Shown: positions 5,386 through 47,085 of the stretch, one piece after another
Layout: each line of letters begins with the position of its first letter
Numbering within the stretch: the first letter of the stretch is position 1
DNA from: Oscillospiraceae bacterium
Lineage (GTDB): Bacteria > Bacillota > Clostridia > Oscillospirales > Oscillospiraceae
Direction: 5' to 3'
Assembly (NCBI GenBank): GCA_048201935.1
Contig: DBFBGR010000024.1
Span: forward strand, 41,322 to 105,321
Length of the DNA stretch: 64,000 bases
Program-made: the position numbers and the translations under genes
Notes under the pieces: model-generated
What the model saw: the letters and a program-made list of their open reading frames with translations, nothing else
Databases searched by the model: none
Told to the model about the DNA's origin: nothing

Positions 5386-5387
5386 GG

Positions 5388-5527: not shown

Positions 5528-5538
5528 ATAAACACAGC

Positions 5539-5573
5539 AAAAACGGCGGCCCCAAGTGGGGCCGCCGTTTTTC
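5539..5573. terminator. bidirectional intrinsic terminator between mreB (+) and metK (-)
   Basis: AAAAACGGCGGCCCC-AAGT-GGGGCCGCCGTTTTT: an 11-bp GC stem flanked by an A-run and a T-run. Confidence 0.85.
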
Positions 5574-5588
5574 TCGGTTTTTTCGGCG

Positions 5589-6770: not shown

Positions 6771-6798
6771 GGTTTTCTTCCTTTCTTTTTTGAGGCAC

Positions 6799-8606: not shown

Positions 8607-9071
8607 ATGGAACGCATCGCCAGCTTTTCGGTGGATCACACCAAACTCCGCCCGGGGATGTACATCTCCCGCACTGATGGGGACATCGTCACCTACGACC
8701 TTCGCTTCAAGCGGCCCAACACCGGCGACCTCCTGTCCAACGCCCAGCTCCACTCCGCCGAGCACCTCTTCGCCACCCTTTTGCGCAACAGCGAGCATAA
8801 GGACGCGGTGGTCTACTTCGGACCCATGGGCTGCCAGACCGGGTTCTACCTCCTCATCGACGGCTCCAAGCTGGACCACCAGGGCGCCATCTGGCTGATG
8901 AAAGAGGTCTGCGACCACGGCTCCATCTACCAAGGCGAGATGCCCGGAAAGAGCGAATTTGAGTGCGGAAACTACCGCAATTTGGACGTGGACCTGGCAA
9001 GAGAGCTGTGCGTCTACTACGGCCAGATCTTGAAAAACTGGACGGTGGAGAAGCTTCAATACGAGGGCTGA
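8607..9071 (+). CDS. luxS: S-ribosylhomocysteine lyase (AI-2 synthase)
   Basis: SFSVDHTKL, the HSAEH metal-binding motif and GPMGCQTGFYL. ATG at 8607 lies 3 nt after the mtnN stop; the ORF-track start at 8250 overlaps mtnN and is rejected. Confidence 0.95.
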   Translation: MERIASFSVDHTKLRPGMYISRTDGDIVTYDLRFKRPNTGDLLSNAQLHSAEHLFATLLRNSEHKDAVVYFGPMGCQTGFYLLIDGSKLDHQGAIWLMKEVCDHGSIYQGEMPGKSEFECGNYRNLDVDLARELCVYYGQILKNWTVEKLQYEG

Positions 9072-9088: not shown

Positions 9089-9124
9089 AAAAAAACACCG
9101 CCTGATAACAGGCGGTGTTTTTTG
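9089..9124. terminator. bidirectional intrinsic terminator (luxS + / SLH-phosphatase-like gene -)
   Basis: AAAAAAACACCGCC-TGATAACA-GGCGGTGTTTTTT. Confidence 0.8.
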
Positions 9125-12131: not shown

Positions 12132-12146
12132 TACCTTGGCACCTCC

Positions 12147-15100
12147 TTATCGGTTCCACACACGGAACCCGGCCGACAGCAGCCCCACAGTGGGGCCGCC
12201 GTCGTTCAGGTCGTCGTGATAACGCCACTTCTCATCGATCCAGCACTTGTCCCAGGTCTCGGGCACGGTGTAGCCCGTGGGCAAGGTCTCATCCACCACG
12301 TACTCGTGGTCGTTGGCGGCCTCGATGATCTCGTAGTAGGCCCACTGATCCTTGGTGACATCGGGCCAGGTCATGTACTCGGTGGTACCGTTCTCGGTGA
12401 CGTTGCTGGCCACGCCGGAGTGGACGTACTCGGTGAGCTTGCTGAGGCCCTCGGCGTTCACGCCGCGGTTCAGGTAGGCGTTGAAGATCTTCACGGTCTC
12501 GTCACGGCGGATGGGATTGAGCGGCTTGAAGGTGCCGTCGGTATAACCGTTGACCCAGCCGTTGGCGTAGGCGGTGTAGATGCCGTCCACGGCCCATGCG
12601 CCCGCGTCGCCCATGTCGGTGAAGGGCAGCTCCTTGGCGGACTTGACGCCGCTGAGGCGGGCCATGACCAGGGCCAGCTCCTGACGGGTGATGGACTGGT
12701 CGGGCTTGAAGGTGCCGTCGTCATAGCCCTTGAACACGCCGTACTTGGAGCAGTAGGCGATGGCGCTGGCGGCCCAGTGGTCGTTCACGTCGCTGTAACC
12801 GCCGGGATTGCCGTAGTCGGCGCCCTCCACGAAGTTCGGGAGCACCGCGCGGGCGATGATGGTGGCCACGCTGGCGCGGTTGATGTTATCGCCGGGGCCA
12901 AAGTTGCCGTTGGGATAGCCGATGACGTAGTGCTCATGGAAGGGCCGGCCCAGGTCGTAGACGGGCTGGTAGACGGCGAAGAAGGTGGTGTCGCCGTCGA
13001 TGGGCACGCTCTTGGGATCCACCAACGGACGCTTGGCGTCGGCCTGAGCGTCCCCGGTGGGACCGGTCAGGCTCCAGCCCAGGAACTTGTAGCCCGCGAG
13101 AGCGGTGACGTTGGGCACGGTCTTGACCTTGCCCCGGTCGGCCACCATCTCCATGACGGGGTCGGTGGTAGTGCCGTAGAGGCCCAGCAGGTAGGTGACC
13201 TGGTTGGGACAGGCGGGATCCACGCCGCCACCGCCGCCACCGCCGGGATTGGTGATGTTGACGGTGATGGTGTAGGAGGCCTTGACCACCTCGGTCTCCA
13301 GTCCGGCCTTATCCACGGCCCGGACGCCTTGGGCGGTAAGGACCAGCACGAAGACGCCGCTGCCCGCTTCGGAGGTATCCAGACCGCTCAGGTCCAGCTC
13401 CCAGGTGTTCTTGTTCACGGGCTTGCCGTCGTCGTCCACCTCCAGCAGCGTGTCATGGGGCTCATCCAGCCGCTTGAGGGTCCAGTTGTTGGTGTACACC
13501 GTCGCGCCGGTCTCCGGGTCGGTGGTGGACTTGCGTTGGGCCAGTCTGCCCGAGACGGCCAGTTCAGGCTCCTGATCCACCACGGCGACCTGGTCCACGT
13601 TGCCCACGTAAGCGCCCAGGTTGATCTTGTATACGCCGGGCTTGCTGCCCTTGGTCACCGAGACGGTGCGGGCGTCGTCCACCTTGGGGCCGGTGGTGTC
13701 GGTGGGCGCGTCCACCTTCACGTCATCGAACTTCAACTGGGCGATCTTGCCCTCCTGCTCCTTCTCGATGACGATGGGCTTGTTGGGCTCGGTGTCGTCC
13801 TCCTCGGGATGGAGCTCCACCTTCACGCCGGTGTTGGTCTCCAGGATGTACTCCACCTGCTCCTCGTCGATGCGCTGGTTGTCCTCCACGCCGGTGTCCT
13901 TGCCGTTGTCCTTGGGATCGAAGTAGAAGTAGTCCTCGGTCTCGTTGTCCTCGGTGGCAAAGCGGACAAAGACGTAGTTAGGATCGGGGATGAGCTTGAG
14001 CTTCACCCGGTAGGCGGTGTTGGGCTTGAAGGTGTCGCCGGTCTCGGGGTCGGCGCTGAGCTCACGCTTCTCGTTGCCGTTCTCGTCCAGCTCGACCCAG
14101 GTGATCTTGTAGCCCAGACGGGTCAGGCCGTTGATATCCAGGCCGTTCTCCGGGCCGTGCTCGGTGTCGCCGCCCTTGTTGATCAGATCCACGTCGTCCT
14201 TGGCGGAGACGTTGGTCAGGTTGGAGCCGTCGATGCTGTCATCGCCGCGGTAGAGGACCTGGCCCTTGACCACGATCTTGGAGACGTTGTCACTGACCTT
14301 CTGGTCCACCTCGGCGGCGCCCAGGCCGGTAACGTTGGCCAGGACGATGGGACGAGGCACGATCTTGATGATCAGGGTGTAGTCGGCGGATACGCTGTCA
14401 GCGGCCATCAGGCTGGCCTCGGCGGGCTGGGTGGTGCTACCCGTGGCGTTGACCTTCAGGGTGTACTCACCGGCGTACTTCAGGCCCCGCAGGTCGGCCC
14501 GGAATGCCTGGGCCCGGTTGTCGTGGCTGGTGGCGCTGTCGGAGCTCTGACGCGTCAGGTGGTCCAGGGTGGTAAAGGCGCTGGAGCTGGCGGAGCTGGG
14601 GAACTGGGTGCCGCCGTCGGCGCTGAGGATGCCGATGCGGTCGTTGCCGGTCTTGCCGTCCACCCGCTTGCCGGTGTTGCTGGTCACCTTCAAGGCCACA
14701 TCATAGAGATCCTTACCGCCGGGGTTCTGGAGGTACACGTCGAAGAACTCGGGGATCTGGTCCAGGTAGTAGACCACCACGCGCTCGTTCTTGTAGTCGT
14801 TGGACCACTCGTGAGCGGCCAGCTCGGCCTCGGCGCCCTTGGCGTGGTCGGCGTCGTTGAAGTCCAGACCCACGTCGGGCTTCTTCACCTCAATGTCCAG
14901 CTCCGCGTCGGCGTAGGAATAGTCGTAGGGGTTCTCATACTCCTTGGTGTCGCTGTTCAGGATGCCGGTGTAGGTGAAGGTGAAGGTGTAGCTGTTGGTG
15001 TAGGCGCTCTCGTCGGCGTTGGGGGTGCCGCTGAGGCCGTTGAACTTGGCGGGCGCCACGCTCCACACGCCGTTATTATAGGTATCACCGGCACTGTTGT

Positions 15101-18100
15101 GGGTCGTGGGCTCATCCTCGTGAGGCGTCACCACCACGTCAGTGGCGTTCTTCGTGTTGAGCACCTGCTTGAAGAGGAAGGGCGGCAGGGTGACGGGATC
15201 GCCGTCCTCGATGACGGTGTTGTCGCCGGTGGTCTTGTTGGCCAGGTAGGCCGCCACATAATCCGCGGCCGCCACAGGCACGTCAATGGTCAGCGGGGAG
15301 GTCATCACGTCCACGGTGTAGGGCACGAACTTCACCACGCCGGTGTTCTTGTCGGTGAGCTTGATGTAGACCTTCAGCTCGTCCTCCACATCCACCAGCT
15401 TACCGTCCACAGTCTTCTTCTCCACGTGGACGCCGGTGGCGTTGGCGGTGACCTTCAGACCGATCGTGTCGCCCACCGCCAGGTCGTCGGTGGTCTGGCC
15501 GTCGGCAAAGCCCAGCCAGGCGCTGGCGGCGGTGATGTTGGCCAGCATCTTGGCGTCGGCGGTCTCATCCAGCACCTTGGCCGTCTTCAGCTCGTCGGCG
15601 GTGGCGATGGCGATGGCGAACTTCTGGTTGGCAGAGTTGGCGTCGCCGGTGATGGTCATTTCGCCGGGGGTGGCCTCAAAGGCGTTGTTGCCGTAGTAGA
15701 CCTTGGCCGCGGCCGTGTCCGCGCCGAAGTCGGCGGGCTCGAAGACCGCCTCCACCCGGGCGTTGGGTCCGCCGGGCTGGAAGGTCGTCTCGGCGGCGGT
15801 GGCGTCGCCAATGACGCTCTTGGTGTCGGTGACGTTGCCCTCGTCATCCATAGCCAACTGCCACTTCACAAAGCGGTAGCCGTCGGCGGGCTTGGCGTAG
15901 ATATCAGCCGCTCCGCCGATGGGGGCGTTGCCCTGCTTCTCGGGGCCGTAGTCGTCGGCATCGCCGGTGGTGCTCACGGAGCCCCAGTAGTCGTGGACAT
16001 CGTCCTCGGCGTTGTCGTCATGGTCGGCGGTCCAGGCGGTGAAGGGATAGCCGTCGGCCTGGATGGTGAGGGTGACGGAGGGATCGTAGAGGCTGCTGCC
16101 GCCCTCCGCGGCGGTCTTGTCCACCAGCTTGCCGTCCACCAGCTTCTTCGCGCCCTTGGTCAGGTCGTAGAAGGTGATGACATAGGCGCCCACGCCGACG
16201 TTGCCGCTCTCCAGCCAATCCCGGCTCAGGGTGTACGCACCGTCCAGGTCCTCCACAGCGGAGCCGTCCTTGACGAAGGTCAGAGGCTTGGTGGTCTCGC
16301 TGGCGCCGTTGATAGCCAGAATGGTCTCGGCGCTGCCGGTCTTGGGCCGGATGGTGACCACGATGTCGTTCACGGCGTCGTCCACATTGTCGCCGCCGTC
16401 GTTATTGACGTAGTCGAACACGGGGGCGGTGCTGTGGTCCAGATCGTAGAGCTTGTAGGTCTGGTCCTTACTCAAGGTGGGCAGCAGGTCATAGTAGGCC
16501 ACCACGGTAGGATCGTTGCCGCCCACATGGTAGAAGGGCTTGAGCATCTCGTTGGGCTTGGTGTTATTCGGGTTTGTGCTGTCCAGGAAGGTGCCGCCGG
16601 CGGCGGTCTCGGTGCCGGGCAGGTCCTCGGTCACCAGATCGGCCCACTTGATGAACAGGTGGGTCTTGGCGGTATTGAGCTGGCCGGTGGTCAGCTTCAC
16701 ATCGCCGTTGGCCACGTCCACGAAGATGGTGCCGTCGGGGGCGGTGGCGGTGAGCTTCTGGTCCTGGGAGTTAGTGAACTCCGCACTGGTGGCGGTGCCG
16801 GACACGTCGTTCTGGGTGCCGGTGCGCCAGGCCTGGATGGTCACCGTAGCGCCCACATAGGTGGCGGCGATGTCGGTGCCCACATACCAGATGTCGTCGC
16901 CCTGGATGGTGCAGTAGAGGATGCAGCCCTTGTCATCGGCCACGGGCCTATACTTCAACAGGTCGGAGCCGGTGGGCGCGCCCATGCCGCCGCTTTCCTG
17001 CACCAGGGTGATGTCGTCGTTGGTGGGAGCGTTGTCCACCAGGTACTTGACCTGGGCGGCCTTATCCGTGCCCACGCTGGCGGGGAAGGTGAAGGTGCTG
17101 GGCACCTTGAACCAGCGCACCGTCACGTCGTAGTCGGCGTCGGTACCGGTACCGTAGGTGGTCAGGTTGGTGTGGGTGCCGTAGCTGGGATTGGCCTTGG
17201 GACCGCCGTCATGGTCCTGCACGCCCACCGTGGCGGTGGCCACGCCGCCCACGCTCACGCTCTTATTCAGGGCGGTGATGGACACGTCGGGCCGGGTGTC
17301 GATGTACTTGATGGACATGGACTTGGTGCTGCTGGAGGGCTCGGTGGTGTCATCGCCGGCGTTGTGCAGGGTCAGCTCGAAGGTGGCCTTGTCGCCCCGG
17401 ACCGCGGAGATGGGCGTGCCAGCCTGGCTGCCGTCAGCGGCATAGGCGGTGCTGTAGCCGTCGGTCTGGGCCAGCTTGTAGAGCTCCTCCTTGGTGTAGG
17501 TGAAGCCACGGTACTGGTCGCCGTACTTGTTCCACTCCGTCGAGCCAAGCACTGCCGGGATCAGCGACCACTCGGCATAGGGCACGATCCGGTCGGGGTC
17601 CCAGTCGATGGCGCTGCCGCCGATGGTGCCTTCCACCATAGCGAACTGGCGGCTGGCGTCATCAGCATAGCCCGCGGCGTTGATCTCCATGGACCAGTCC
17701 TTGTGCTTGTTGGTCAGGCCGGAGGTGGCGTACTCCACCAGGCCCAGCTTGTCGCCCACGCCGCCGGCTCTGGGGTTCAGGTCCCACTCGATGTCCAGCG
17801 GCAGACCGACCCAGCCCTCGTCCACGATGCAGATCTGCAAGGGCAGCTTGTCAAAGAGGCTGTACTCGTCCACCGAGGCGTCCGCGCCCATCACGTCGGC
17901 CACGTTGCCCGGGTCGTAGACCCAGAGAACGCCGTCGTAGATGCCGTAGGCCTCCTTATAGCCGGGCTGGCCCTTGGTTCCCTCAGCCGCCTTATAGCCC
18001 ACGTTCCGGTCGCCGGTGGGATTGCCGGCGGCGGAGTAGGCGTGGTCCTTGGCCCAGGCCGCGGAGAGCTCCGCGGTGCCGTCGGCGGTGCCGGGATAGA

Positions 18101-30100: not shown

Positions 30101-33100
30101 ACATCTTCACCGTGACGGAGGCGCTGCCCGCGCTCACGGTGTAGCCCGTGTCATAGCCATCCACCAAGACCTTATAGGTGTGGCCGTTCATCAGCGCGCT
30201 GTCGGTCCACGCGTTGGTGCTGGTAGAGGTCCGTGTAATGGTAGAGGTAGAGCCGGTCCAGTTCTGGTGCTTGGCGGTGTCCGCCCCGGTGGTGGCCGCG
30301 TCCACCAGCTCGATGCGCACCCGGTCCGCGCCCTCGGTGTAGGCAGTGGTGCCGTCATGGCGCACCAGGTTGATGGTGCCGGTGAAGTTATCCGCTTCCC
30401 AGAACACTTTCACCGTAACGTCCTTCTTGGGGGTCACCATGATGTGGTCGCGGTCGGCGGTGTCCACATAGTAGCTGTTGGAGTCGGCGGGGATGGCGTC
30501 GCCCTTGGCGCCGCTGCTATTCTTGTTGAAGTCCACGTCGGCGGCCACGGTGGGAGAGACCACCTTCCAGCCCACCACCCGCATGGTGGCCTTGGGGGAG
30601 GTCACCACCGGCACATAGTCGCCGGTGTCCACAAAGAGGGCGTAGTTGCCGCTGGCGTCGGGCCCGGTCACATCGTCCACGCTGGTGCCGGTGGGCTTGT
30701 TGATGTCGCCGCCGCTCTTGTTGTCGTTTTGCAGCGTGACCTTATACTGCTCTTGATAGTTGGCCGTCAGGGTGATCTGGTTGGAGGTGGTGATGCCCAG
30801 ATCGTTCTTCAGCGCGCCCTCGGCAGGCAGGGTGAAGGTGGTGCTATAGCCGGTCTTGGTCTTGTTGGCCACCGTCACCATGTCGGTGTCGGTACCGGCG
30901 TTGCTATACTGGCTCACCGTCCAGCTATTGAAGCGGTACCACTTCTTGTCGCTGCCCTGGCCGCTGTGGTTATTGCGGCTGGCGGAAATGCTCAGATTGG
31001 ACTGCGCGCCGCTCTTGGCCAGGAAAATCTTGCTGGTGGTGGGGGTGGAGCCCACGCTGGCGGCGTGGTCCACGTTCACATTCGCCGAGGCGTTGGTCAA
31101 CCCGCCGCCCAGGGCCAGCACCACGGTGTAGTAGTTCACCTCAGCGGTGGCGGGGCTCGACACGGTGTTAGCGGTGGTCACCGTGACGGTCTTGCCCGTA
31201 TTTTCGCCGCCCACGTAGACGTTATAGGTGCCCACATGGACCTTGTTGCCGTAAATGCCGGTGTTGGCGCCGGTCTCGGTCAGGTCATATTGCTTCGCGC
31301 CGTCCTTCCACAGCTCCACGGTCTGTCCACCACGCACGGCGTTGTCCAGCTTCACCGTGACCTGCGCGGGGTACTCGCCCTGCTTGTAGAAGGCGGTGAC
31401 CACCACCTTGTCGGTCCCGGTGGGCTTGACGGTGATCACGTCGCCGGTGGTCACATAGTGGCCGCTGGCGTCCGCCGTCAGCGTAGCCGCGCTGGCGTTG
31501 GAGCCGTCATGGACGGTGCAGGTCCCCGTCACCGTCCAGTAGTTCAACTGGATGCCGTCCCCGGGCACGGTGGTGACGGACATATAGTCGCCGTCGTCGA
31601 TCTTGTTGCCCGTCAGGTCGCTGGTGCTGGCGGAGGTAGAGGCCAGCACAGAGCCCGTGCTCCCCGCCGCCACCTGGATGGTGGTGGCGGAGCCCTTGGT
31701 GCTGTCCATCTTGGCGTCCACTTCCCGCTGGAGGACAAAGTAGGCCGTAGCGTCAATGTCGTGGGAGATGGTATCAAAGGTCACAAAGGTGGCGCTGGCC
31801 ACGGCGTTGGGCGTGGTCACCGCCGCGCTGTCGGCGTTGCTCGCCGCCTGGTCGGTGATGGCCCAGGTGTTGGCGCCGTCCTTGGTGTTATCGCGCAGGC
31901 GGTAGCCCACCGTCGAGGTGGGTGCGGCCTGGATGCTCACCTGGGCGTTGCCCGAGCTGGTGGTGGCGCCCACGGGGACATAGACCTCGGTGGCGCTGCC
32001 GCTGATGGACGCGCCAAGGGCCACCTTCACCGTACCGGTGGAGGCGGTGGGATCCTTCTTCACGGCGATCTGGTACATCGCCACGTCATGGGTATCCGTA
32101 CCGTTCCAGGCGTTGCCCGGCTTGAGCACGTCGGTAGAGGACTCAAAGCCGTTGATGGTCAGCTTGCCGGTGGTGGCGGGGTCCAGGTTGGAGATGGTGT
32201 ATGCCCCCGTCCCGGAGGTCTTAGTCACCGTCGCCGCGCCGCCGGAGCCAAAGCCGCCGGTGGCGGTGATGGTGCTGGCGTCAATGGGGGTGGTGCCGTG
32301 CTTCAAGACGATGTGGACCTCATAGCTGAAGTTCGGCGTCAAGGTCACGCCGGTGGTGGGCCAGTTGGTGGTGACCAGGCTGGTGTAGGAGGTGGTCCCC
32401 ACCGTGCCGTGTCCGGTCACGTCCTCGGTCCAGGCGGCGGTGCCGGTCTTCTGGGTATAGCCGCTGGCGGGAGTCAGCCCCAGCACAAAGGAGCTGTCCG
32501 CCTTGCCCACGGCGGTGGTGCCGGCAGTGGTGCTCTGGCCGGCCACCTTCACCGTAGCCCCGGACCAGCCCGTGCCCGAGGCGGTCACATGGACGCTGTA
32601 AAGGGCCAGGGAGGTATTGGTGTTGGCCGAGCCGCTGACCTCGGTGACCTCATAGTCGCCGCTGACAGTGGTGACCACCCACTTGTAGTCGGCCCCAGAG
32701 GACTCGATACCGCTGGCGGTGTAGATGATAGCGGTGGTATCCGTGGTGGTGTCCGTGCTGATCTTGCTGCTGGCCACGGTGTTACCGCTCTTATCCACCA
32801 GCTTCACGCCGGTGATGGGCTGGCCCGAGGCCACATTGGGCTGGGCGCCGTCCAACCGAAGCGTAAAGGTGGCGTCAAAGCGGACCTTGGTATAGCCCGC
32901 CGTGGCGGTGCCCACCTTGTTGGTGGTGGTCACCTGCTGGGCCGCATACGTCCCGACGGTCCCGGTGACGTTCGTCAGCGCCCACTTGTCGAAGTTAAAG
33001 AGCCCCGCGCTGGCGTCGGCCACGATGTAGGGCTTGCTGCCCGAGAGATAGTAGTTCTCCACCGAAGCCGCCGTGGTCGTCACCGAGCTGGCCGCGCCCA

Positions 33101-36100
33101 GGCCCACCTTGGCCCCGGCGGTGCCGTCGGTGGTGACGGTCAGCTTGTAATAGGTGATGTCCTTATTGTTGTCCGCGGCGGTGGCGCTGGCGGTGAAGTT
33201 CACGCCGGTATACATCTGCCCCAGGCTGTTGTCGGTATTGGTGGCCCAGATATAATAGGTATCGCCCACCGTCAGCGCGTCGCTGGCCGTGGTGAACTTG
33301 AACTTATCCGTGCCGTCCTGGGTCAGGGTAATGGCCCCGGCGGTGGCGTCGCTGGCCGAGGTGCTCAGCACCACACTGCCGGTGAAGCCCACATAGTTGG
33401 CCGCCGTGCCGTCGTCCTTCTTCACCGTGATCACCGACTGGGTCTTCTGCTTGTCGAAGGTGACCTTGTAGGCGGTGGGCTTGTCGATGGCGTTCAGAGA
33501 ATAGGTGGCCCTGTTGCCGGCGACGCCCGGCGTACCCGACACGCTGGTGGCGGGCGAGGTGGCCTGGTCGGTCCAAGTAGCCTTATTCACGTCATAGGTC
33601 GTGGCAGGCTCCGCCACCAGCACGATACCGGTGGTACCCTTCAGGTATCCACCGTTCACACTGTTGGCGGTCGCACCGGTGACCTGCGCCGAGCTGGCCT
33701 TCACGCTGGCGTCGGTGCCGTCGACGGTCACACTGTAGTAATCCACCGTCTTCTCCACCGTCTCGCTGATGGCCAGGGTGAAGCCGGTCTTGTCCACGCA
33801 CACGCCGTCCACCCAGATATAGTACTTCTCACCGTCACCTGTAGCGGTGGCGTCGCCGGAATAGACGCTGGTCTTGGTGGGCGTGGTGTCACTGAGGCTG
33901 ACCGCGCCCGTAGTCCCGTCCGAATCACTCTTGGTCAGCACCACCGTGTGGGTCTTGGTGGTATCCGCCAAGGTGTCCAGGTTGATGGTCACCTTCACCG
34001 TCCCGGTGGTGATGGCGTTGACATAGTGGGCGGTCAGGGTCTGTCCGTTCCCGTCCGTGCCCGCCTTGGCCGTGTAGGTGCCATTCGTAAGGCCGGTGCC
34101 GCCGCCCAACGTGCCGCCGATACCGTCCTTCTTCGTCCAATTCACGAAGTTGAGATTGTCACTGCTATTCAGATCCTGCGCCTTCAGCGTGATGGTAGCG
34201 CCGTCAAGCACCAACGTGGCACTGGGGCCCTTCTCCGAGCTCCAGCCGCCGCCTGTAAACCGGCCCCGCTTTGCTGTGTTCGTAATGGCCGCGCTGGTAC
34301 TGTCGTTGTAGGCCGCAAGGGTGACCACCTGGGTGTCCACCCGCGCCGTCGTAGATGTGTAACTCACCGTCGCGCCTGTCTCCAGCGCGCCGTTGGCCGT
34401 ATAGCCAGCCGTGTCGTCCCCTGTGACCTCACCGAAAAGGACCTTATACTCCTTCTCCGGGTCCAGACCAGTAAAAGTATAGACGCCGCTGGCGACCGTG
34501 CCCTTGACCAGCGTGCCCGCGTCGTCCTTCAGCCAGACCACGTTTGCCGTGCTGTTCAGCACGCCGTCAGCATAAAGGCTCACCTCGGCGGTATAGGGCG
34601 ATTTGTAGGTCGCCTGCAGATCGCCGTTGGTCTTACCCACCTGGATGCTCTGGGTGGTTCCCGAGGAGGGAGTAATGTCGGTGGTAGCGTTGGGATAGGT
34701 CATCTTGCTGAAAACGTCGGTGCCATAGCTCTTGACGTTCACCGTCAGATTGGTAAACTGCGGCAGCGTATACACGTCGTCTTCAGTCTGAGATCTGTTG
34801 AGAGTGCTTACAGTATGGGTCCCGCCGTCGCTGATGGTCTCCGACATATAGAGATAAGACCTGTTGTTGTTGGCGGTGGCCCGGCCTAGGGGCACCTTAT
34901 TGGTCACCGTCCCCAGATAGACCGTCTGCTCCAGAACCTGGGCGTCACCCTCGTTGGTGTTGAAGGTGATCTTGGCGGTGTGGTCAGTGTCGGCATAGCA
35001 CACCACGCCATTGATAAGGATCTCCCACTCCGCACCCTTATCCAGCTTGACGTTCCACTGGTTGGTAAGCACCGAGTAGTTGGAGACCGTATACGAGTTG
35101 GTGGGCCTGCCCACCTGCCGGATCACCACGCTACCGCCGGCCCCGTCCGTCCCGGAGCCGATCTTGTTGGTTCCCTTGTCCGCGTTGTTCACGATGGTGG
35201 TCAGCTTGACCTCCAGCATGCTGTCCTCATAGGTGGCCGTCAGGTCACGGTCCTTGGTCATCTGTACGACGACCTGCTTCGGATTCCTCTCGTTAAAGAG
35301 GTCCCCGTCCTCCCGGCCAGTCCAATCCTTGATCTTATACGTAGTTTGCGTGGTATGGATCTCCGGCGCGATCAACGTCACCGCGGTATCCGGCATAAAG
35401 TAATTGAAGGTCGACGCGTCGGCGCCGATCTGCTTGGTGAATTGGTTGTCCCTGACGCCCGCGGGATCGCTCTTGTAGGTCAAATGATACAGCGTCACGT
35501 TGGCGGTAAATTTCCCGTTCTCGTCCTTCGTCACCATAATGCCGGTGTCCACACCGTCCACCACGATCGTCTCGCCCACGTTCACCGTGCCCGTATAGAC
35601 ATGCGTAGCGCCTGTGCTTGTCAGGGTCGGCGGGGTGGTGCCGTTGGAGGTGACCGTGTGCACCGTCGGCTCCGCACTCTTGGTGATCGCCTCGCCATCC
35701 GTATCCACCAGCGTGATGGTGACATCCGCAGTAGTGGCCACCGCCCAAATGTGGCCGTCCTTGTGCTCCGCCGCGGTGGTGTCCGAGGTACCCTGAATGG
35801 TACCCGTGGCGTTCAGTCGGTAGGTGTGCGCGCCGCCTCGGGTGGACTGGCCTACGGCCAGCATATTTGTGCCGGTGCTGTCAGAGCAGATGGGCACCTC
35901 ATAGCTCTCCCCCGGCGCCAGCGCCACCGGGATGGTAAAGCTCGTCCCAATGCTGCTGTCCAGACCGTAGTTTTTCGCATAACCCGTGCCCGCCGCGTCG
36001 GTATCCACCGCGGCGGGATGGGAAGTGGCCGGATTATAGCTAGTAACAAGGACCGATACCACCGCCGACCTGGCCATGGTCACCGTGATCTTCTCGATGG

Positions 36101-37040
36101 TCTTGCCGCTGATGTTCTTCACCTTCGCGGTGGTGATCTGTCCTGTATGCTTCTTCGCCACCGTCATCGGCGTATTGGTGATGGTGATCTCCAGCCCCGG
36201 GCCCTCCGCCACCTTCATCTCAAAGCTCAGATCTCCGATGACATAAGAGTTATCACCGAAGTAGTAGATGACCTTATAGGGGAGCGCCGAGGTGATCTTC
36301 GTTCCGCTTGCGTCATAGGCAGTCTCTGTACCGGCTACTAACTTTTCAATCAACTCATCCCGGGCCTTGGTAAAGCTATCATAACCGGTATTGTCTTGCT
36401 GTGGTCTTGCGGTCCCATCATAAATAATGCTACCACTGTCATTGAGAGCAAGTGCTTTACCGTCTGCGTATGTTACACTTCTGGCACGTGTTTGTGCCGC
36501 ATAGAGCGGATAAATATCTGCATAGGTCGTGTAGAACTCTCTACCCGTTAACACATTAGCACTCGGTATTAGATTTTCTGACGTGATAAGTCTGCTGTCT
36601 AATGTCGTTGTATCTTCATCTTTCTCTAAGCGAAAATTGGGGAAAATAGCAATAGTTACCGGTTGGGTACCTGCTCCGTTCGCGGTAATGGTCGCAATGT
36701 ATCCATCCCCGGCGTCATCTCCGGTCTTCATATTCTCCGACTTAAAAACATTGCCAGAACCGCCTACAGCATTACCATGGTCGCCGATGGCGGAGCCTTC
36801 TCCCTGCTCCCCGTCACCAGGGGTCGGGGTCTCCGGCCTCTCGTCGGAGGATGTGCCGCTAGACCCCGGCCGGGCATGGGTATCCACCACCCGGTCGGTC
36901 TTGTCCAGCACCGGGACCTCCACGCGAGCGCTCCCGGGGTCGTCCATGATCATGGCCGCCATGGCGTTCATAGGTAGCACAGATAGGAGCATGACGACGG
37001 CCAGGAATAAGCTCAGGCCCTTCTTCATGAGTTTCTTCAT
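12147..37040 (-). CDS. giant (8297 aa) Thr-rich, SLH-anchored repetitive cell-surface protein (putative fibrillar adhesin)
   Basis: Single uninterrupted 24.9-kb frame. ATG 37040 lies 8 nt after AAGGAGG. Signal peptide MKKLMKKGLSLFLAVVMLLSVLPMNAMAA. Dozens of beta-rich T/V/A/G modules, including many Flg_new-like units (YRFDKWQ, YIFQKWT, YRFVKWQ, LNFVNWT, FVEWT, RVVGWK). G7 linker, then Flg_new + 3 SLH repeats + conserved tail at the C-terminus. Confidence 0.9.
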   Translation of the reverse strand: MKKLMKKGLSLFLAVVMLLSVLPMNAMAAMIMDDPGSARVEVPVLDKTDRVVDTHARPGSSGTSSDERPETPTPGDGEQGEGSAIGDHGNAVGGSGNVFKSENMKTGDDAGDGYIATITANGAGTQPVTIAIFPNFRLEKDEDTTTLDSRLITSENLIPSANVLTGREFYTTYADIYPLYAAQTRARSVTYADGKALALNDSGSIIYDGTARPQQDNTGYDSFTKARDELIEKLVAGTETAYDASGTKITSALPYKVIYYFGDNSYVIGDLSFEMKVAEGPGLEITITNTPMTVAKKHTGQITTAKVKNISGKTIEKITVTMARSAVVSVLVTSYNPATSHPAAVDTDAAGTGYAKNYGLDSSIGTSFTIPVALAPGESYEVPICSDSTGTNMLAVGQSTRGGAHTYRLNATGTIQGTSDTTAAEHKDGHIWAVATTADVTITLVDTDGEAITKSAEPTVHTVTSNGTTPPTLTSTGATHVYTGTVNVGETIVVDGVDTGIMVTKDENGKFTANVTLYHLTYKSDPAGVRDNQFTKQIGADASTFNYFMPDTAVTLIAPEIHTTQTTYKIKDWTGREDGDLFNERNPKQVVVQMTKDRDLTATYEDSMLEVKLTTIVNNADKGTNKIGSGTDGAGGSVVIRQVGRPTNSYTVSNYSVLTNQWNVKLDKGAEWEILINGVVCYADTDHTAKITFNTNEGDAQVLEQTVYLGTVTNKVPLGRATANNNRSYLYMSETISDGGTHTVSTLNRSQTEDDVYTLPQFTNLTVNVKSYGTDVFSKMTYPNATTDITPSSGTTQSIQVGKTNGDLQATYKSPYTAEVSLYADGVLNSTANVVWLKDDAGTLVKGTVASGVYTFTGLDPEKEYKVLFGEVTGDDTAGYTANGALETGATVSYTSTTARVDTQVVTLAAYNDSTSAAITNTAKRGRFTGGGWSSEKGPSATLVLDGATITLKAQDLNSSDNLNFVNWTKKDGIGGTLGGGTGLTNGTYTAKAGTDGNGQTLTAHYVNAITTGTVKVTINLDTLADTTKTHTVVLTKSDSDGTTGAVSLSDTTPTKTSVYSGDATATGDGEKYYIWVDGVCVDKTGFTLAISETVEKTVDYYSVTVDGTDASVKASSAQVTGATANSVNGGYLKGTTGIVLVAEPATTYDVNKATWTDQATSPATSVSGTPGVAGNRATYSLNAIDKPTAYKVTFDKQKTQSVITVKKDDGTAANYVGFTGSVVLSTSASDATAGAITLTQDGTDKFKFTTASDALTVGDTYYIWATNTDNSLGQMYTGVNFTASATAADNNKDITYYKLTVTTDGTAGAKVGLGAASSVTTTAASVENYYLSGSKPYIVADASAGLFNFDKWALTNVTGTVGTYAAQQVTTTNKVGTATAGYTKVRFDATFTLRLDGAQPNVASGQPITGVKLVDKSGNTVASSKISTDTTTDTTAIIYTASGIESSGADYKWVVTTVSGDYEVTEVSGSANTNTSLALYSVHVTASGTGWSGATVKVAGQSTTAGTTAVGKADSSFVLGLTPASGYTQKTGTAAWTEDVTGHGTVGTTSYTSLVTTNWPTTGVTLTPNFSYEVHIVLKHGTTPIDASTITATGGFGSGGAATVTKTSGTGAYTISNLDPATTGKLTINGFESSTDVLKPGNAWNGTDTHDVAMYQIAVKKDPTASTGTVKVALGASISGSATEVYVPVGATTSSGNAQVSIQAAPTSTVGYRLRDNTKDGANTWAITDQAASNADSAAVTTPNAVASATFVTFDTISHDIDATAYFVLQREVDAKMDSTKGSATTIQVAAGSTGSVLASTSASTSDLTGNKIDDGDYMSVTTVPGDGIQLNYWTVTGTCTVHDGSNASAATLTADASGHYVTTGDVITVKPTGTDKVVVTAFYKQGEYPAQVTVKLDNAVRGGQTVELWKDGAKQYDLTETGANTGIYGNKVHVGTYNVYVGGENTGKTVTVTTANTVSSPATAEVNYYTVVLALGGGLTNASANVNVDHAASVGSTPTTSKIFLAKSGAQSNLSISASRNNHSGQGSDKKWYRFNSWTVSQYSNAGTDTDMVTVANKTKTGYSTTFTLPAEGALKNDLGITTSNQITLTANYQEQYKVTLQNDNKSGGDINKPTGTSVDDVTGPDASGNYALFVDTGDYVPVVTSPKATMRVVGWKVVSPTVAADVDFNKNSSGAKGDAIPADSNSYYVDTADRDHIMVTPKKDVTVKVFWEADNFTGTINLVRHDGTTAYTEGADRVRIELVDAATTGADTAKHQNWTGSTSTITRTSTSTNAWTDSALMNGHTYKVLVDGYDTGYTVSAGSASVTVKMFKVIIDTKIDGALNDGTTDYKPSDAKTKATIRGANAPITTAIPATGNLVYDLYVPETASNVVITMNASNAGAGLRLRNATKDGAGNTLWTTYETAMDGTVSTTAVSAVANADSQNTTLTFKTKDTGAITKDVTIYANYITVLTLQVQTPTPATGNVAGGTVEVTNGGTIASNKLSTAIDKDSVATVKATPTTATAMNDYAFVEWTKISGDGAWKKDAAGTAMDSGAVPGATAYYAPSQDTTLQASFKNLKASGDTITAAAATGVAWSNGVVFTIDAGYTTALTGSVDLANLATANTKQLTASIVAKTLGSGQTDGSSTITAGTIVTTNLNAVGGLDTGKKTTVPVSFGTGLGVGVYVADLKVTDGDVTVTVPVTVNVVNPAKFKVQIKTYPDGVTAPSGANITSVILVPTAGTEAKKAGNVTLTETSAGSGVWTAQVAWDGTYTVYVDGYATGTTNVNNTQVAGGAAQAEYDVKDLYTVQFSAAEYKDGSNVKGTPKFVTKPATVTGVSAATVVPANDTTAGALHAIVIPANGQITLTDGTNANASGSYHYRFDKWQQHVVSATASATDATVATGGAYTVDATAPSTTTNAPIFLDPQYVQQHKVTLKPAAVTLSGGTAPTGIGVTMTPTTTAAKTLAANGFIMVDDGEAITLSALTADPTDYIFQKWTATGSPTFGTGTGETANDRTAKFTPKADTELTPNYWIWPTVSPSSRTYYLGVATGATVPNTSITNAEPVYSWTANDATYEKLSYKKKGASGASTDLTLGTDYTVSTTGGVSTITLKDTFLKTLAKDTYELTFASKTPANGTQTDRKADLVIEVYQNKLTQTDVQVKGNASAVHAAPGAALEYVQHFHENILPGDLTWQWYRADKAPTQSLADSSDHNNSQAGHPNYNDAAAALTAASSGNSNVNAISGETSATLSAIPAAAEGQYVFAIVTASGTGSKAVITNAIAVDFDGTITVREDEVAVTETTQAAAEGRYKVWLIPDGTDPNATDISATTGAVQARYDTATHTYKTSGYGLVGGTTYKVYVNEVEGTFTEGKWRDQGTITPTAPTKTVDYYTLTLVDMGKEGWTEANKGTDTNAVHPYLVHAKDKNNAEVGEAWDYDNMPGLSATTVGNAITVPNGNAILKTTKVKAVSEKWSQDYNVDWYSDEAAVTGSATPTLAKKDADKTSTDANTNGYTMAVGITHATKITGQLKQNTYEVKGQVRATGGGQIASAQLAVMDGTTEKYVFEPSVAVTLSGGDAGVVTFKVPKSIAGAKVGEKYVLSAKGKTDPRSTVIGYSGAYTTFPSATNVPAQIGPLDVAVSAAAEKQFLIHVNASKWELKVEDDNTNKGGVANPSEDATIAKATATHTSVVTAEAGVKSKSAKTTWTKIFDNYNSTNDQLVYKVTVTNTANTNLDVTLALSEGGTAVDLSTISSGATGGTYTSAKNVTIAGLTDGGKFSLAANVGTNPANTKEFTVTIPTTLANADDVKYTFAFTSTETGTSGPDLVYGPSVTYELDLVVDPIPVASVGVSSTGNIHTYNNLTFQTGLDASKLDISDAAAAGSDVTFEWYAVDYTANPVLNTTTGAVTVGGAAASPISTGLSENNTKLDLTGVYNYAGKKLFVVAKGGNNASMAAMSDTIPGLRQVKIELFEDTTKKTGSSAPSGYELYYVEKGAAFDLSTATALTWDGTDAFAMDSVAGKEYDIYANIKGTQTAASKEFKKVLTIADSDFNAGGTYASERPKVVYQQLTINDTTVDNVYTGLSGAAFYKDDASDIPAAKPTATVPDTASGTIGVTTGQWVLKNSAVTLSYVAWDKDYDLNWTTALTATDDGPSTSAVTQSVSMSANQTVDTELKLNLYPIEVHVIGSGSVDVVTLSDGTNTFTTAATGGIQAIGGAESKINAGTNKTFQVPKGSYTATAKATAGTTLSGYNVPATGSTTATITTDDTTVTTDNKTFDVVLLSTGQKLRVSTDLSATGYGEALYSTAASDGELKQTVTLPYGYAQKDIVVTVANNSNLVSGTPQTIYDVTLDDSGIDGASGANGGKVSITNANLSGKPDMDGLLLSTTETISIAQGLTVGTYTAPVEFSFAHTDGGSDTAKVTYTLTIKVEPVEFVDVSMKYADGSTMGSFLVEDKDLALNEYETSTIDLFGKTSADPSYLTEGTDYHYAWYASADNTIANADLDWADASGTVTVNFKNSKTATEIGTQDQDLTDAVIQANQGKYIYLMIYATSNNKVVKAAISAPIRTGFQGVVRVKENATRYNAAADPAYTVTFTEGGNKVESTWTNLGTDADPDWAYVSDSYLDPSKTYAANASVGKAPLADEMVKVADVTVTAPATTAEYFTVTAVETVDKPYVEAVKETFSSHPSPEFTYTKADSSVVSVASGSNILKDQSVTAKFSDGGTAGDGKAWDQDYTLTWRDLQKNDQASATDNDLSDVTVSGNAVTETSATALTGRAWTITTKTFIGGRLDQNTYTVKGNISGTPGTVASVTMEDANGNVYTTETSGGINPAKTGGGYENGIANTNSNTETGDEGDTIIFKVVAGTYTITAVDGPSTTIQQMQWNSTTPVGGKTLTGASVTTAGNEFTVILAQSDIQLKVADQDAPTDHTATSTTSASSNYKQAKHTESVFYKELANHKGLHVDLYNPGNTDLTVSMELYKTSKTGLAAITDWSNTAQLGTAMTISGNAAQDPATGTAIVSFTGLLADDTPLAAGTEGDKDGNGSIDGNEKAAVSAATITINKDAVNTDDAVYILRYVSKNGDAAGPVVYYVLDFEVKPLPIVGVSAEAVSGGSVITTPPKTGDAVQLEDMSGTNQGFDKVLVDDDGKTTTAAVAANTKLVDGTDVKYAWFSAPTSMSKADFTASLSVASGAVSSNGTGVSALTTGKQHTLTNNDLGKNLYLVAYAPSDQVNASELAVSDAIATQKLVQIKVNVDGAAMAAADNASYTFKVHPLKGDGTADTTVDIAETWQGIDTTKDSYQLTIDVTKTYAVYAPITKGNTTTYVDTGLRLGKKDSAIVDEVTVPYWTVNYTPDVAVNSTYADFASALAGPLPSALGVKVSDAKSDAAYNTALTASGTPVLEGMYVQVDVNADTKNQAGNDDWKTKQHYTLNATDWAKNTNTTAFAYADATDVSGVKHVLSDGMKVESGIQNKTFSGKLTQNLYDVKFVITGSGKLKNVALDTTETVTSFSTKTVTKDAAGNDIANGGTVVFAQVPAGEYTISAVAETGTTLGKARFDGDTAADLPLTFTVDGDDDGLAADGSVATNATDSKPENYIDLLASTYYVQWQDNFTGSEQTTPDTGAFALSTGFAKAGLVYGAYAQKDYKVRLVNLGNAPIDGVTLTGAANASLTGNKTTASNIASEHTFDLDAVKVYAPKDGGGYDDVTATHVNATTKELTLPLGGYAEFDLSIPAPTFAPASPAYAAEVGDHGLRFQVGRTNDSAGNARSVTVVKNATGTPADNGGDYTPKYTVVKAPITLLKVTGIDAPVYGAVIDETHDELTAADTNLLPFPAVTDPDVTVVWSDGTNTLNSGDKFAPGREYTASVTFTPDGNHEFVNKYIADTGITPGDDDTPATGYTILGGKNSDTPVSVKKNADGTLTLTYTFPATAPALEVVASSLVPAGSNGLNEARKGKVDRLHVESDKAVDVYYIVVDQTPGDFDSNPGTPDTAPDAPADAKALLDLYKAGVSGTVEVVGRVANHTDADKDTGWAINGLKKNGTKYMVYAVALPKDTDLTDTAAAGALASAIASDSFTTPFRVEARLGTLDDPSNSSSVVAPAVINDAGAEQNKNVAFVQAADDKVIQAGAETNVDTGTVILGIQADNAFSFSIWQQVNNDDPDANGTRGSGAMSAKVDKGPVGTSHTRFENTFKPTANSTLEPAFGGIPALALEGDVRGNQIAKGNTNIPILDASSGGKAKNDGTLSIYDNAVLMITPKWLQKDDGSWVDMASDAGAAYFAELWKAGKLDDNKTPFFTVSNTGNTVHRADGSTDAADQKLGGNEYMDVTVYPGTADGTAELSAAWAKDHAYSAAGNPTGDRNVGYKAAEGTKGQPGYKEAYGIYDGVLWVYDPGNVADVMGADASVDEYSLFDKLPLQICIVDEGWVGLPLDIEWDLNPRAGGVGDKLGLVEYATSGLTNKHKDWSMEINAAGYADDASRQFAMVEGTIGGSAIDWDPDRIVPYAEWSLIPAVLGSTEWNKYGDQYRGFTYTKEELYKLAQTDGYSTAYAADGSQAGTPISAVRGDKATFELTLHNAGDDTTEPSSSTKSMSIKYIDTRPDVSITALNKSVSVGGVATATVGVQDHDGGPKANPSYGTHTNLTTYGTGTDADYDVTVRWFKVPSTFTFPASVGTDKAAQVKYLVDNAPTNDDITLVQESGGMGAPTGSDLLKYRPVADDKGCILYCTIQGDDIWYVGTDIAATYVGATVTIQAWRTGTQNDVSGTATSAEFTNSQDQKLTATAPDGTIFVDVANGDVKLTTGQLNTAKTHLFIKWADLVTEDLPGTETAAGGTFLDSTNPNNTKPNEMLKPFYHVGGNDPTVVAYYDLLPTLSKDQTYKLYDLDHSTAPVFDYVNNDGGDNVDDAVNDIVVTIRPKTGSAETILAINGASETTKPLTFVKDGSAVEDLDGAYTLSRDWLESGNVGVGAYVITFYDLTKGAKKLVDGKLVDKTAAEGGSSLYDPSVTLTIQADGYPFTAWTADHDDNAEDDVHDYWGSVSTTGDADDYGPEKQGNAPIGGAADIYAKPADGYRFVKWQLAMDDEGNVTDTKSVIGDATAAETTFQPGGPNARVEAVFEPADFGADTAAAKVYYGNNAFEATPGEMTITGDANSANQKFAIAIATADELKTAKVLDETADAKMLANITAASAWLGFADGQTTDDLAVGDTIGLKVTANATGVHVEKKTVDGKLVDVEDELKVYIKLTDKNTGVVKFVPYTVDVMTSPLTIDVPVAAADYVAAYLANKTTGDNTVIEDGDPVTLPPFLFKQVLNTKNATDVVVTPHEDEPTTHNSAGDTYNNGVWSVAPAKFNGLSGTPNADESAYTNSYTFTFTYTGILNSDTKEYENPYDYSYADAELDIEVKKPDVGLDFNDADHAKGAEAELAAHEWSNDYKNERVVVYYLDQIPEFFDVYLQNPGGKDLYDVALKVTSNTGKRVDGKTGNDRIGILSADGGTQFPSSASSSAFTTLDHLTRQSSDSATSHDNRAQAFRADLRGLKYAGEYTLKVNATGSTTQPAEASLMAADSVSADYTLIIKIVPRPIVLANVTGLGAAEVDQKVSDNVSKIVVKGQVLYRGDDSIDGSNLTNVSAKDDVDLINKGGDTEHGPENGLDINGLTRLGYKITWVELDENGNEKRELSADPETGDTFKPNTAYRVKLKLIPDPNYVFVRFATEDNETEDYFYFDPKDNGKDTGVEDNQRIDEEQVEYILETNTGVKVELHPEEDDTEPNKPIVIEKEQEGKIAQLKFDDVKVDAPTDTTGPKVDDARTVSVTKGSKPGVYKINLGAYVGNVDQVAVVDQEPELAVSGRLAQRKSTTDPETGATVYTNNWTLKRLDEPHDTLLEVDDDGKPVNKNTWELDLSGLDTSEAGSGVFVLVLTAQGVRAVDKAGLETEVVKASYTITVNITNPGGGGGGGVDPACPNQVTYLLGLYGTTTDPVMEMVADRGKVKTVPNVTALAGYKFLGWSLTGPTGDAQADAKRPLVDPKSVPIDGDTTFFAVYQPVYDLGRPFHEHYVIGYPNGNFGPGDNINRASVATIIARAVLPNFVEGADYGNPGGYSDVNDHWAASAIAYCSKYGVFKGYDDGTFKPDQSITRQELALVMARLSGVKSAKELPFTDMGDAGAWAVDGIYTAYANGWVNGYTDGTFKPLNPIRRDETVKIFNAYLNRGVNAEGLSKLTEYVHSGVASNVTENGTTEYMTWPDVTKDQWAYYEIIEAANDHEYVVDETLPTGYTVPETWDKCWIDEKWRYHDDLNDGGPTVGLLSAGFRVWNR

Positions 37041-37123
37041 CGTGGTGGTCCTCCTTAGGTTTGTTGGCATACGCCGGGTTTGATGGGTCCCGGCGCCGCC
37101 GGGGGTCAGGTCATTGTTTCATG

Positions 37124-44551: not shown

Positions 44552-44608
44552 TGCCCTCACCTGCGTTTCTCGTCAGCCTTTTCTAGCCGCTCTGCCTATC
44601 GTCTCGTC

Positions 44609-46831: not shown

Positions 46832-46955
46832 CGCGCTCACATCCCTTCGGCCCTAGAGTGGCAAGCGGTCAGACAAATTTCGCCGCGCCCGTTTTCTTCC
46901 AGATATTACCAGCTTTTAGCTGTGTTCATGGCATAAAGACACAGTTTCATGATTG

Positions 46956-47008: not shown

Positions 47009-47055
47009 AAAATATAGCAAAAAGCAGACTCGCCCGCTTTTTCCCGCGGACGAGT
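47009..47055 (-). terminator. intrinsic terminator after prfB
   Basis: GCAGACTCG (47014-47022) pairs with CGAGTCTGC (47041-47049), with an inner CCGC/GCGG helix. T-run on the minus strand, A/T runs on both sides. Confidence 0.75.
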
Positions 47056-47085
47056 CTGCTTTTTCTTGATAACAGGGAGATTTCC

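Follow-up and report, generated by a model that had tools for sequence, protein, structure and literature searches.

What is encoded by a reading frame that runs for 24.9 kb without a stop codon, and what could a protein of that size do for its cell? This question is raised by a 64,000-nucleotide (nt) stretch of an Oscillospiraceae bacterium genome (contig DBFBGR010000024.1, positions 41,322 to 105,321; hereafter the window), in which a single gene specifies an 8297-amino acid (aa), Thr-rich protein, here termed the giant. The giant ends in three surface layer homology (SLH) repeats and is not an orphan but a member of an undescribed and uncharacterized family at one syntenic locus in an Oscillospiraceae clade. 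Within this family, the C-terminal anchor is conserved, and the preceding chain diverges far faster than the two housekeeping proteins compared. The giant is best read (probability of about 0.6) as an exported, SLH-anchored protein whose modular chain projects from the cell as the outermost contact or adhesion fibre and is under diversifying selection.

The giant is a real, intact gene. It contains 8297 codons, one terminal stop and zero internal stops (open reading frame (ORF) listing and translation), and is the longest ORF in the window, which has a G+C content of ~64%. The product has a mass of ~870 kDa and a pI of 4.6. An earlier note on this DNA, made from the letters alone, had described a stop-free gene with a strong ribosome binding site, a signal peptide and a T/V/A/G/D-rich composition. 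All of these features are found, on the minus strand, which the earlier note had left unstated. The longest-ORF version (12147..37070, 8307 aa) begins at an ATG at 37070 without a Shine-Dalgarno sequence; the ATG at 37040 has one and matches public gene calls (8297 residues). By inspection, the N-terminus, MKKLMKKGLSLFLAVVMLLSVLPMNAMA followed by A, resembles a Sec signal peptide. Threonine accounts for 13.9% of the residues, Ala for 11.4%, Gly for 9.3%, Val for 9.0% and Asp for 8.2%, and only ten residues are Cys.

The gene contains neither tandem repeats nor long high-identity direct repeats. Its direct repeats are limited to 30-47-nt matches, mostly of 62-83% identity with one of 91%, which composition alone explains. 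Because the gene lacks DNA repeats of the kind that mislead assemblers, collapse or expansion during assembly is very unlikely. A second public assembly, the Logan assembly of run ERR6281341 (30.6-kb contig ERR6281341_6314), is 100% identical across the 15.4 kb compared and yields an identical 8297-aa call. Proteins neighbouring the giant are also found on a 442.8-kb contig in NCBI and ENA. Long antisense ORFs lie over the giant and its neighbour on the plus strand (11040-24185, 4381 aa; 28293-34889, 2198 aa; 39479-44713, 1744 aa). They are most likely by-products of codon composition in a high-GC genome rather than genes, and could mislead gene callers.

The C-terminal anchor of the giant is a cassette of three elements that follows a Gly7 linker. 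The first element was expected from the earlier note to be a Flg_new repeat. Its Pfam Flg_new score of 16.7 bits falls under the cut-off of 27, but its model matches the InlB B-repeat structure 2y5p in Foldseek with a template modelling (TM) score of 0.76 and a probability of 1.0 (beta-grasp fold). The second element consists of the three SLH repeats (PF00395), which score 95.4-100.6 bits over three stretches against a Pfam cut-off of 20.8 and match the Sap SLH domains 6bt4 and 3pyw in a phmmer search of PDB sequences. The TRAE motif of these repeats occurs as the variants NRAS, TRQE and RRDE, and GVFKG and GWVNG are also present. An alignment of 60 sequences was built from the cassette, that of a 388-aa paralogue described below and 58 database homologues. 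The TRAE-type arginines (R116, R180 and R240) are invariant in it.

An AlphaFold2 model of aa 7940-8297 made with this alignment has a mean predicted local distance difference test score (pLDDT) of 86.8 and a predicted TM score of 0.75. In Foldseek, the cassette model matches the Bacillus anthracis Sap SLH trimer (6bt4 and 3pyw) with TM scores of 0.72-0.73 and Paenibacillus alvei SpaA-SLH with 0.62-0.72. The SLH triad is thus predicted to adopt the three-pronged spindle fold of SLH trimers. The conserved ligand-binding residues of SLH repeats are Trp13, Gly in the GIIxG motif and Arg in the TRAE motif; in SpaA and Sap, this Arg is documented to take part in binding pyruvylated wall polymer (PMC6081394). 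A gene for the pyruvyltransferase CsaB was absent among the window genes examined (64 kb of genome). The third element is a Trp/Tyr-rich tail that is 92% identical in orthologues and recurs in the 388-aa paralogue and in ~50 database clusters. Its model loses confidence only in a short dip (~aa 8210-8219) and over the final ~25-30 residues, 17 of which, at the very end, lie below a pLDDT of 50, and the tail obtained no structural match in the Foldseek search of the cassette model. Given an SLH triad that anchors the C-terminus, the N-terminus would be the end furthest from the wall. The linker, SLH triad, conserved tail and orientation therefore agree with the earlier note, with an exported-looking N-terminus and the right SLH fold and motifs.

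The next gene downstream encodes the 388-aa paralogue, which consists of the anchor only. In it, a signal peptide and an InlB-type B-repeat precede an SLH triad, which is followed by the Trp/Tyr-rich tail. Identity to the last 350 aa of the giant is 53%. The end of its signal peptide, ...SAFAAGCP, is readable as a weak lipobox. A search with the last 350 aa of the giant returned 78 clusters, of which ~50 are 340-390-aa proteins of the same layout; the named ones are assigned to 'Oscillospiraceae bacterium' (CE91St43) and 'Pseudoflavonifractor sp.' The cassette proteins fall into two groups, nearer to the C-terminus of the giant or nearer to the small gene, and members of the former group are probably fragments of giants.

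At every examined locus of the small cassette proteins, in at least eight related assemblies, a giant SLH gene lies immediately upstream. The small gene (360-390 aa) starts 16-71 nt after the stop codon of the giant at the seven loci where both ends are called. Of the eight loci, four (L005/L006, L010/L011, L012/L013) are also syntenic further downstream and L003 and L008 partially so, and two contigs end at the small gene. The syntenic downstream genes encode a HisKA kinase, an SLH 5'-nucleotidase / SAM_HAT_C / phosphatase, LuxS, Pfs and MetK, and match the window. The statement of the earlier note that proteins of this size are rare needs qualifying, as a conserved locus holds a family of proteins of 4.8-8.7 thousand residues (kaa), one of them larger than the giant (8656 aa; Table 1).

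The beginning of the tail is near-identical between the giant and the 388-aa paralogue, and the DNA identity of the two cassette copies in the window peaks at 88% over 151 nt. Concerted evolution of the two tails was considered and is unlikely, with 92% identity between orthologous tails and 53% between the paralogous cassettes over 350 aa. Since orthologous tails are more alike than paralogous ones, the cassette duplication is old and is not maintained by conversion.

Searches that started from the body of the giant did not reach this family. A homology search with aa 5900-7100 gave no matches, and an exhaustive HMMER search with aa 5951-7150 against 1.84 billion representatives gave five, all to a single Flg_new_2 module. 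A GTDB genome scan with aa 5900-7100 returned one irrelevant weak match in a proteobacterial metagenome-assembled genome (MAG), and tblastn against plasmids and phages found no match. The negatives of the homology searches with body segments are not read as orphan status: the 8297-aa query is itself missing from their results, even though it is listed in the gene-position index. The libraries behind these searches seem to lack very long proteins, perhaps through a length cap.

The body and the anchor of the giant differ sharply in conservation. In the comparison with GCA_947599925.1, the two housekeeping proteins compared are 95.6% (PNPase) and 95.1% (RNase Y) identical, the small cassette protein is 76% identical and the last 300 aa of the giant are 83-92% identical. 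The body aligns collinearly at a mean identity of 34.6% over 2741 columns, with values of 16-58% per 100-aa window. Against the giant of ERR13959799 (L009), identity is 45% in the body and 87-92% in the anchor. Identity to ERZ12290372 is 34% over aa 6697-8297, and the alignment with CE91St43 is limited to a few modules and the last 640 aa (46.5%). Blocks at aa 6185-6625 and aa 5201-5400 are kept across orthologues. The identity contrast and the range of lengths, from 4816 to 8656 aa, indicate that the presumably exposed chain is hypervariable in both sequence and length and that the anchor is conserved.

The body is built of modules that are 20-38% identical to each other rather than of near-identical stalk repeats. 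The N-terminal region is largely unique, with one prealbumin-like 'TYxVYV' module (aa 449-522). Searches of Pfam, NCBIfam and PDB identified no family in aa 1-934, and a word-seeded homology search with aa 31-950 against 5.8 billion proteins returned nothing, which is a weak negative. The following region alternates 'TYxVYVxG' modules with InlB-B-repeat-like modules and gives sub-threshold Pfam matches to Sgo0707_N2 and CBM_X2 near aa 3050-3120. Next come four super-repeat copies that are 20-26% identical to one another, each with five to six different modules. Self-BLAST of aa 3200-5550 shows collinear matches at offsets of ~650 and ~1280 aa with 25-38% identity.

Module families were defined by iterated hidden Markov models (HMMs) from the giant and fragments of two orthologues. 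The B-repeat family has eight members in the giant (at aa 935, 2477, 2832, 2936, 6104, 6969, 7025 and 7953) and 14 across the giant and the two orthologues, of which four match Flg_new and three match Flg_new_2. The 'TYxVYVxG' modules form a separate HMM family. A 'WxWY / YYVV' family has six members that look immunoglobulin (Ig)- or FN3-like, and a 'modF' family has four members of 130-150 aa; the idea that 'modF' is a B-repeat variant is unsupported (hhalign probability 3.5%). The motifs listed in the earlier note recur in the body, the aromatic-x-F/W-x-x-W ending nine times and the TYxVYVxG type five times, and its Listeria-Bacteroides-repeat modules are borne out by the eight HMM-linked members and by the seven of 14 family sequences that match Flg_new or Flg_new_2.

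In Pfam searches of two halves and ten overlapping 920-aa tiles, only the three SLH repeats rise above the cut-off, with sub-threshold matches to Flg_new_2, Sgo0707_N2, CBM_X2 and Filamin. The Flg_new_2 module at aa 7036-7102, when scanned alone, reaches 25.6-26.3 bits against a cut-off of 23.6 (PF18998). NCBIfam gave only SLH-related matches over all tiles, and PDB sequence searches with two halves, three module profiles and a Trp-rich profile matched SLH only. About 95% of the giant is therefore invisible to Pfam, NCBIfam and PDB sequence searches. Surface families (Sgo0707_N2, CBM_X2, Filamin and Big domains) account for all weak library matches of the body. No tile matches a cytoplasmic family; tiles matching such families only had been named in the earlier note as an outcome that would speak against a surface protein.

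A less repetitive, Trp-rich stretch that had been pointed out near 17.4-18.1 kb is real and lies within a larger non-repetitive block. Trp makes up 3.4% of aa 6313-6547, compared with 1.25% overall, and Thr makes up 6%. The whole block (aa 6185-6625) is 43-49% identical in two orthologues (L004 and L009) and carries the motifs LWVYDxGN, VDxGWxGxPxDxxWDLNPR, DWDPD, YxDTRPDV and DGGP. In three more distant orthologues, the motif does not occur within the last 3.3 kaa. A three-sequence profile of the block has no PDB relative, its members have no Pfam family, and a JGI metagenome scan with the block found nothing. Judged from its sequence, the block is a conserved, family-specific domain.

In the proposed mechanism, the ~870-kDa protein would be exported by the Sec pathway and held non-covalently on the cell wall by the cassette of InlB-B-repeat module, SLH triad and conserved tail. 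The ~7,900 residues before the Gly7 linker would form a chain of ~70-80 short, mutually divergent modules. At least eight of these would be InlB-B-repeat-like, the rest look Ig/FN3-like or prealbumin-like, and part of the chain would correspond to four ancient 650-aa super-repeats. At 3-4 nm per module, ~70-80 modules would make a fibre of 0.2-0.3 µm. The chain would project from the wall, and its unique N-terminal ~900 aa would lie outermost. Diversifying selection, exerted for instance by phage, antibodies of the host or a change of ligands, would act on the exposed body. Fibrillar adhesins of Firmicutes usually have this layout, with the anchor C-terminal and the distal part N-terminal, and SLH is a listed anchor type among them (PMC8286594).

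Several points weigh against this reading. Export, binding of a pyruvylated polymer, fibre shape, adhesion, the selective agent and any role of the paralogue are all inferred. No adhesive, lectin or enzymatic domain was recognized anywhere in the giant by Pfam, NCBIfam or PDB, and the N-terminal binding tip of the earlier note is thus a claim from architecture. The 'WxWY' and 'modF' profiles have no consistent relative in Pfam or PDB, and a single-sequence AlphaFold2 model of aa 6150-6790 has a pLDDT of only 31.7, leaving the body folds mostly unestablished. The orthologue comparisons leave out the N-terminal parts of the orthologues, which places variability of the tip outside the comparison. 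Relaxed constraint on spacer modules, and not positive selection, could also lie behind the fast divergence of the body.

The main alternative, which appears rather unlikely, is a coat or spacer that is hypervariable and does not adhere. It would form a dense brush, perhaps O-glycosylated, or an S-layer-associated canopy, would lack a specific ligand-binding tip, and would shield the wall from phage, antibody or enzymes and set surface properties. A strongly divergent body on a conserved anchor, an acidic protein with 13.9% Thr and the failure to find an adhesive domain would all suit such a coat, as would lengths of 4.8-8.7 kaa, which are expected if length and variability outweigh a defined site. 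The conserved internal blocks (aa 6185-6625 and aa 5201-5400) instead argue for specific functions within the chain, and the giant shows no low-complexity mucin-like sequence or DNA repeat, with no glycosyltransferases among the window genes examined. A scaffold that is anchored to the wall and captures nutrients, similar to a cellulosome or amylosome and docking the secreted neighbours (2478 and 743 aa) or binding polysaccharide, is improbable. Anchoring scaffoldins likewise carry their SLH anchor at the C-terminus. The gene clusters with two secreted proteins, one a beta-helix protein and the other with five unexplained C-terminal repeats, and a weak CBM_X2 match is present. However, no cohesin, dockerin, carbohydrate-binding module or glycoside hydrolase match was obtained with tiles of the giant (E<=1) or with the neighbours (E<=0.001 for cohesin and dockerin), and the neighbours have no modules in common with the giant. 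SLH anchoring in cellulosomes has been reviewed (PMC12484212).

An assembly artefact or a decaying pseudogene without a functional product is effectively refuted. Very long ORFs in MAG-type data are sometimes chimeric, and a high GC content yields spurious ORFs such as the 4381-aa antisense frame, but the gene is repeat-free, is identical in a second assembly and has a good ribosome binding site and signal peptide. Moreover, collinear stop-free orthologues with 35-45% identity are present in multiple independent assemblies, one of them the complete genome of an isolate. A polymorphic toxin or contact-dependent inhibition system was rejected because the giant ends in an anchor rather than in a toxin. 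A serine-rich repeat glycoprotein was likewise rejected: tandem and low-complexity repeats are absent, LPXTG is missing from the C-terminal end, the place expected for a sortase signal, and SecA2/Y2 is absent among the window genes examined. By inference, size and modularity argue against an S-layer lattice protein.

A bolder extension of the adhesion-fibre reading is put forward tentatively and is itself doubtful: the giant and its anchor-only partner may constitute a strain-identity surface locus of gut Oscillospiraceae, with phage, immunoglobulin A or both driving body divergence to more than 10 times that of the core proteome. The 388-aa protein, co-transcribed with the giant, would then be its functional partner and might be a base or socket that shares wall-polymer sites with it or oligomerizes via the conserved tail; alternatively, its gene might provide the homology by which bodies are swapped through recombination. 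In such a locus, the Trp-rich block, 'WxWY' and 'modF' would be new extracellular domain families.

Table 1. Features of the giant locus in the window and related giants in other assemblies
Feature	Position in window	Strand	Remarks
Terminator-like hairpin, strong	47019..47064	minus	Follows prfB and bounds the cluster upstream
743-aa secreted beta-helix + Flg_new protein	44609..46840	minus	First gene of the cluster
2478-aa secreted protein	37124..44560	minus	Directly upstream of the giant; no Pfam domain
Shine-Dalgarno sequence AAGGAGG	37050..37056	minus	9 nt 5' of the ATG at 37040
Giant coding sequence	12147..37040	minus	8297 codons and stop
Putative Sec-type signal peptide, aa 1-28	36957..37040	minus	Ends ...MNAMA before A; by inspection
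N-terminal region, aa 29-934	34239..36956	minus	Largely unique; few self-matches, no library match
Alternating divergent modules, aa 935-3130	27651..34238	minus	'TYxVYVxG' and InlB-B-repeat-like (aromatic-x-F/W-x-x-W ending); motif map, HMM families
Four super-repeat copies, aa ~3130-5760	19761..27650	minus	600-680 aa each; self-BLAST, four-way alignment
Conserved non-repetitive block, aa 6185-6625	17166..18488	minus	Includes the Trp-rich stretch; orthologue alignment
Flg_new_2 module, aa 7036-7102	15735..15935	minus	Divergent InlB B-repeat; only body module passing the Pfam cut-off
Gly7 linker, aa 7933-7939	13224..13244	minus	Between body and anchor cassette
C-terminal InlB-B-repeat-fold module, aa ~7946-8030	12951..13205	minus	First element of the cassette; model and Foldseek
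Three SLH repeats, aa ~8034-8194	12459..12941	minus	Pfam, PDB sequence matches, Foldseek
Conserved Trp/Tyr-rich tail, aa 8195-8297	12150..12458	minus	Mixed alpha/beta in the model
388-aa 'anchor-only' paralogue	10965..12131	minus	Starts 15 nt past the stop codon of the giant
570-aa SLH + SAM_HAT_C + Y_phosphatase3 protein	9135..10847	minus	Last gene of the cluster
Terminator-like hairpin, strong	9090..9123	minus	Closes the five-gene cluster
Related giant, 4816 aa			CE91St43 isolate, complete genome AP025582.1
Related giant, 7013 aa			GCA_947599925.1
Related giant, 6319 aa			ERZ12290372 / ERZ12290373
Related giant, 7135 aa			JGI 3300010163
Related giant, 8656 aa			Logan ERR13959799
Related giants, 6621 and 6629 aa			Two Logan contigs
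Two related giants, cut by contig ends			ENA contigs

The giant lies in a cluster of five minus-strand genes between two strong terminator-like hairpins (Table 1). As the gaps between the genes are only 15-117 nt, a single 38-kb transcription unit is plausible. The 2478-aa protein upstream of the giant ends in five tandem repeats of ~148 aa (at 37127-39334) that are 65-84% identical and follow the pattern WxDFMQSAGAYY...SWYQFQY...KAECE. This protein lacks a recognizable wall anchor, and a JGI metagenome pattern scan with the 148-aa repeat found no relatives; these repeats may represent a new module for wall binding or docking. Shared modules between the giant and the 2478-aa or 743-aa neighbours were sought and not found. 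The 743-aa protein and the giant (36940-37040) carry a short motif right after the predicted cleavage site (A-T-IMD-A-P and A-M-IMD-D-P), which might be a processing or sorting signal or a chance match.

The syntenic gene of the 570-aa protein in relatives is fused to, or lies beside, an SLH 5'-nucleotidase. Some relatives (L012/L013, 12213-15467) encode one 1084-aa protein with Metallophos, 5'-nucleotidase C, SLH, SAM_HAT_C and phosphatase domains, and others have two genes. These single and split forms suggest that the 570-aa protein is a wall-anchored enzyme of nucleotide or phosphate scavenging in the course of fission or fusion. Core genes flank the cluster: prfB, a YlmH-like gene, an ABC transporter and the genes for RNase Y, PNPase, CinA, signal peptidase I, MetK, Pfs and LuxS. 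A SAM riboswitch (6832-6919, minus strand; 47.3 bits, above the gathering score of 44.4) lies 5' of metK (5589-6800, minus strand), and luxS (8607-9071) adjoins pfs (7939-8604), so that genes of the activated methyl cycle are clustered next to the surface-protein locus. The ORF of prfB (release factor 2; 47086-48219, minus strand) has a TTG start and an odd N-terminus, MCETMLEF..., and the programmed +1 frameshift site usual for prfB may lie just upstream of it.

The surface biology of Oscillospiraceae, which are common anaerobes of the gut, has hardly been studied. A conserved locus for a wall-anchored protein of 0.5-0.9 MDa with a divergent exposed part is a candidate for strain-level interactions with host, phage and antibody, and could serve as a strain marker. 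The dark ~95% of the giant is a source of undescribed extracellular modules. The family was reached only via the small neighbouring paralogue, a warning that giants can seem to be orphans for technical reasons. The giant represents a new family within a known kind of protein, and its added interest lies in the conserved pairing of giant and anchor-only genes and in the extreme contrast between body and anchor divergence.

Among known systems, B. anthracis Sap and P. alvei SpaA and SlhA share with the giant three tandem SLH repeats that form a spindle (TM scores of 0.62-0.73 for the modelled triad) and the conserved Trp, Gly and TRAE-type Arg, and the same non-covalent attachment to a pyruvylated polymer is presumed. 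In contrast to these proteins, the anchor of the giant is C-terminal, is flanked by a B-repeat module and a family-specific ~100-aa tail, and carries a passenger of ~7,900 aa of divergent modules instead of an S-layer lattice domain. Sequence identity to Sap and SpaA is just 19-25%. The InlB B-repeat of Listeria (PF09479 and PF18998) recurs in the giant as at least eight HMM-linked modules, one above the Flg_new_2 cut-off and one superposing on 2y5p. Unlike the InlB repeats, however, these copies are mostly too divergent for Pfam, are interspersed rather than tandem and make up ~10% of the protein.

Fibrillar adhesins of Gram-positive bacteria include Staphylococcus aureus Ebh and Streptococcus gordonii Sgo0707, and the N2 domain of the latter has a sub-threshold match in the giant. 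With this class (PMC8286594), the giant shares a signal peptide, a long chain of small modules, a C-terminal wall anchor, here of the SLH type listed among the anchor models, and a distal N-terminus. It differs in using SLH rather than LPXTG, in having no recognized adhesive domain at the distal end (aa 1-934) or elsewhere and in its heterogeneous stalk (20-38% identity) in place of near-identical tandem repeats. Repeated modules and super-repeats exist in this stalk, but only one Flg_new_2 module is above threshold, no listed stalk family is detected, and Pfam stalk families cover next to nothing of it. Because a known adhesive domain was not found and known stalk repeats are unclear, the giant is not filed as a member of the class. 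With moderate confidence, fibrillar adhesins would nevertheless be its closest functional analogue, and the giant would work like one.

The S-layer protein SlpA and the cell wall protein CwpV of Clostridioides difficile combine a conserved anchor with a hypervariable exposed part. The likeness is that the wall-binding part of the giant is conserved and its exposed part diverges far faster than the core. The giant differs from both in its SLH rather than CWB2 anchor, in being 5-10 times larger and in that no phase-variation switch or cassette structure was identified. The giant bacterial genes of West-Roberts et al. (bioRxiv 10.1101/2023.11.21.568195) resemble the present gene in being very large and mostly domain-dark and in their proposed surface or adhesion role. 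At 8.3 kaa, the giant stays far under their class of >30 kaa and, in contrast to that class, has no transmembrane arrays or SecA-like domains and is SLH-anchored. The giant is therefore large but well within the known range of bacterial giants.

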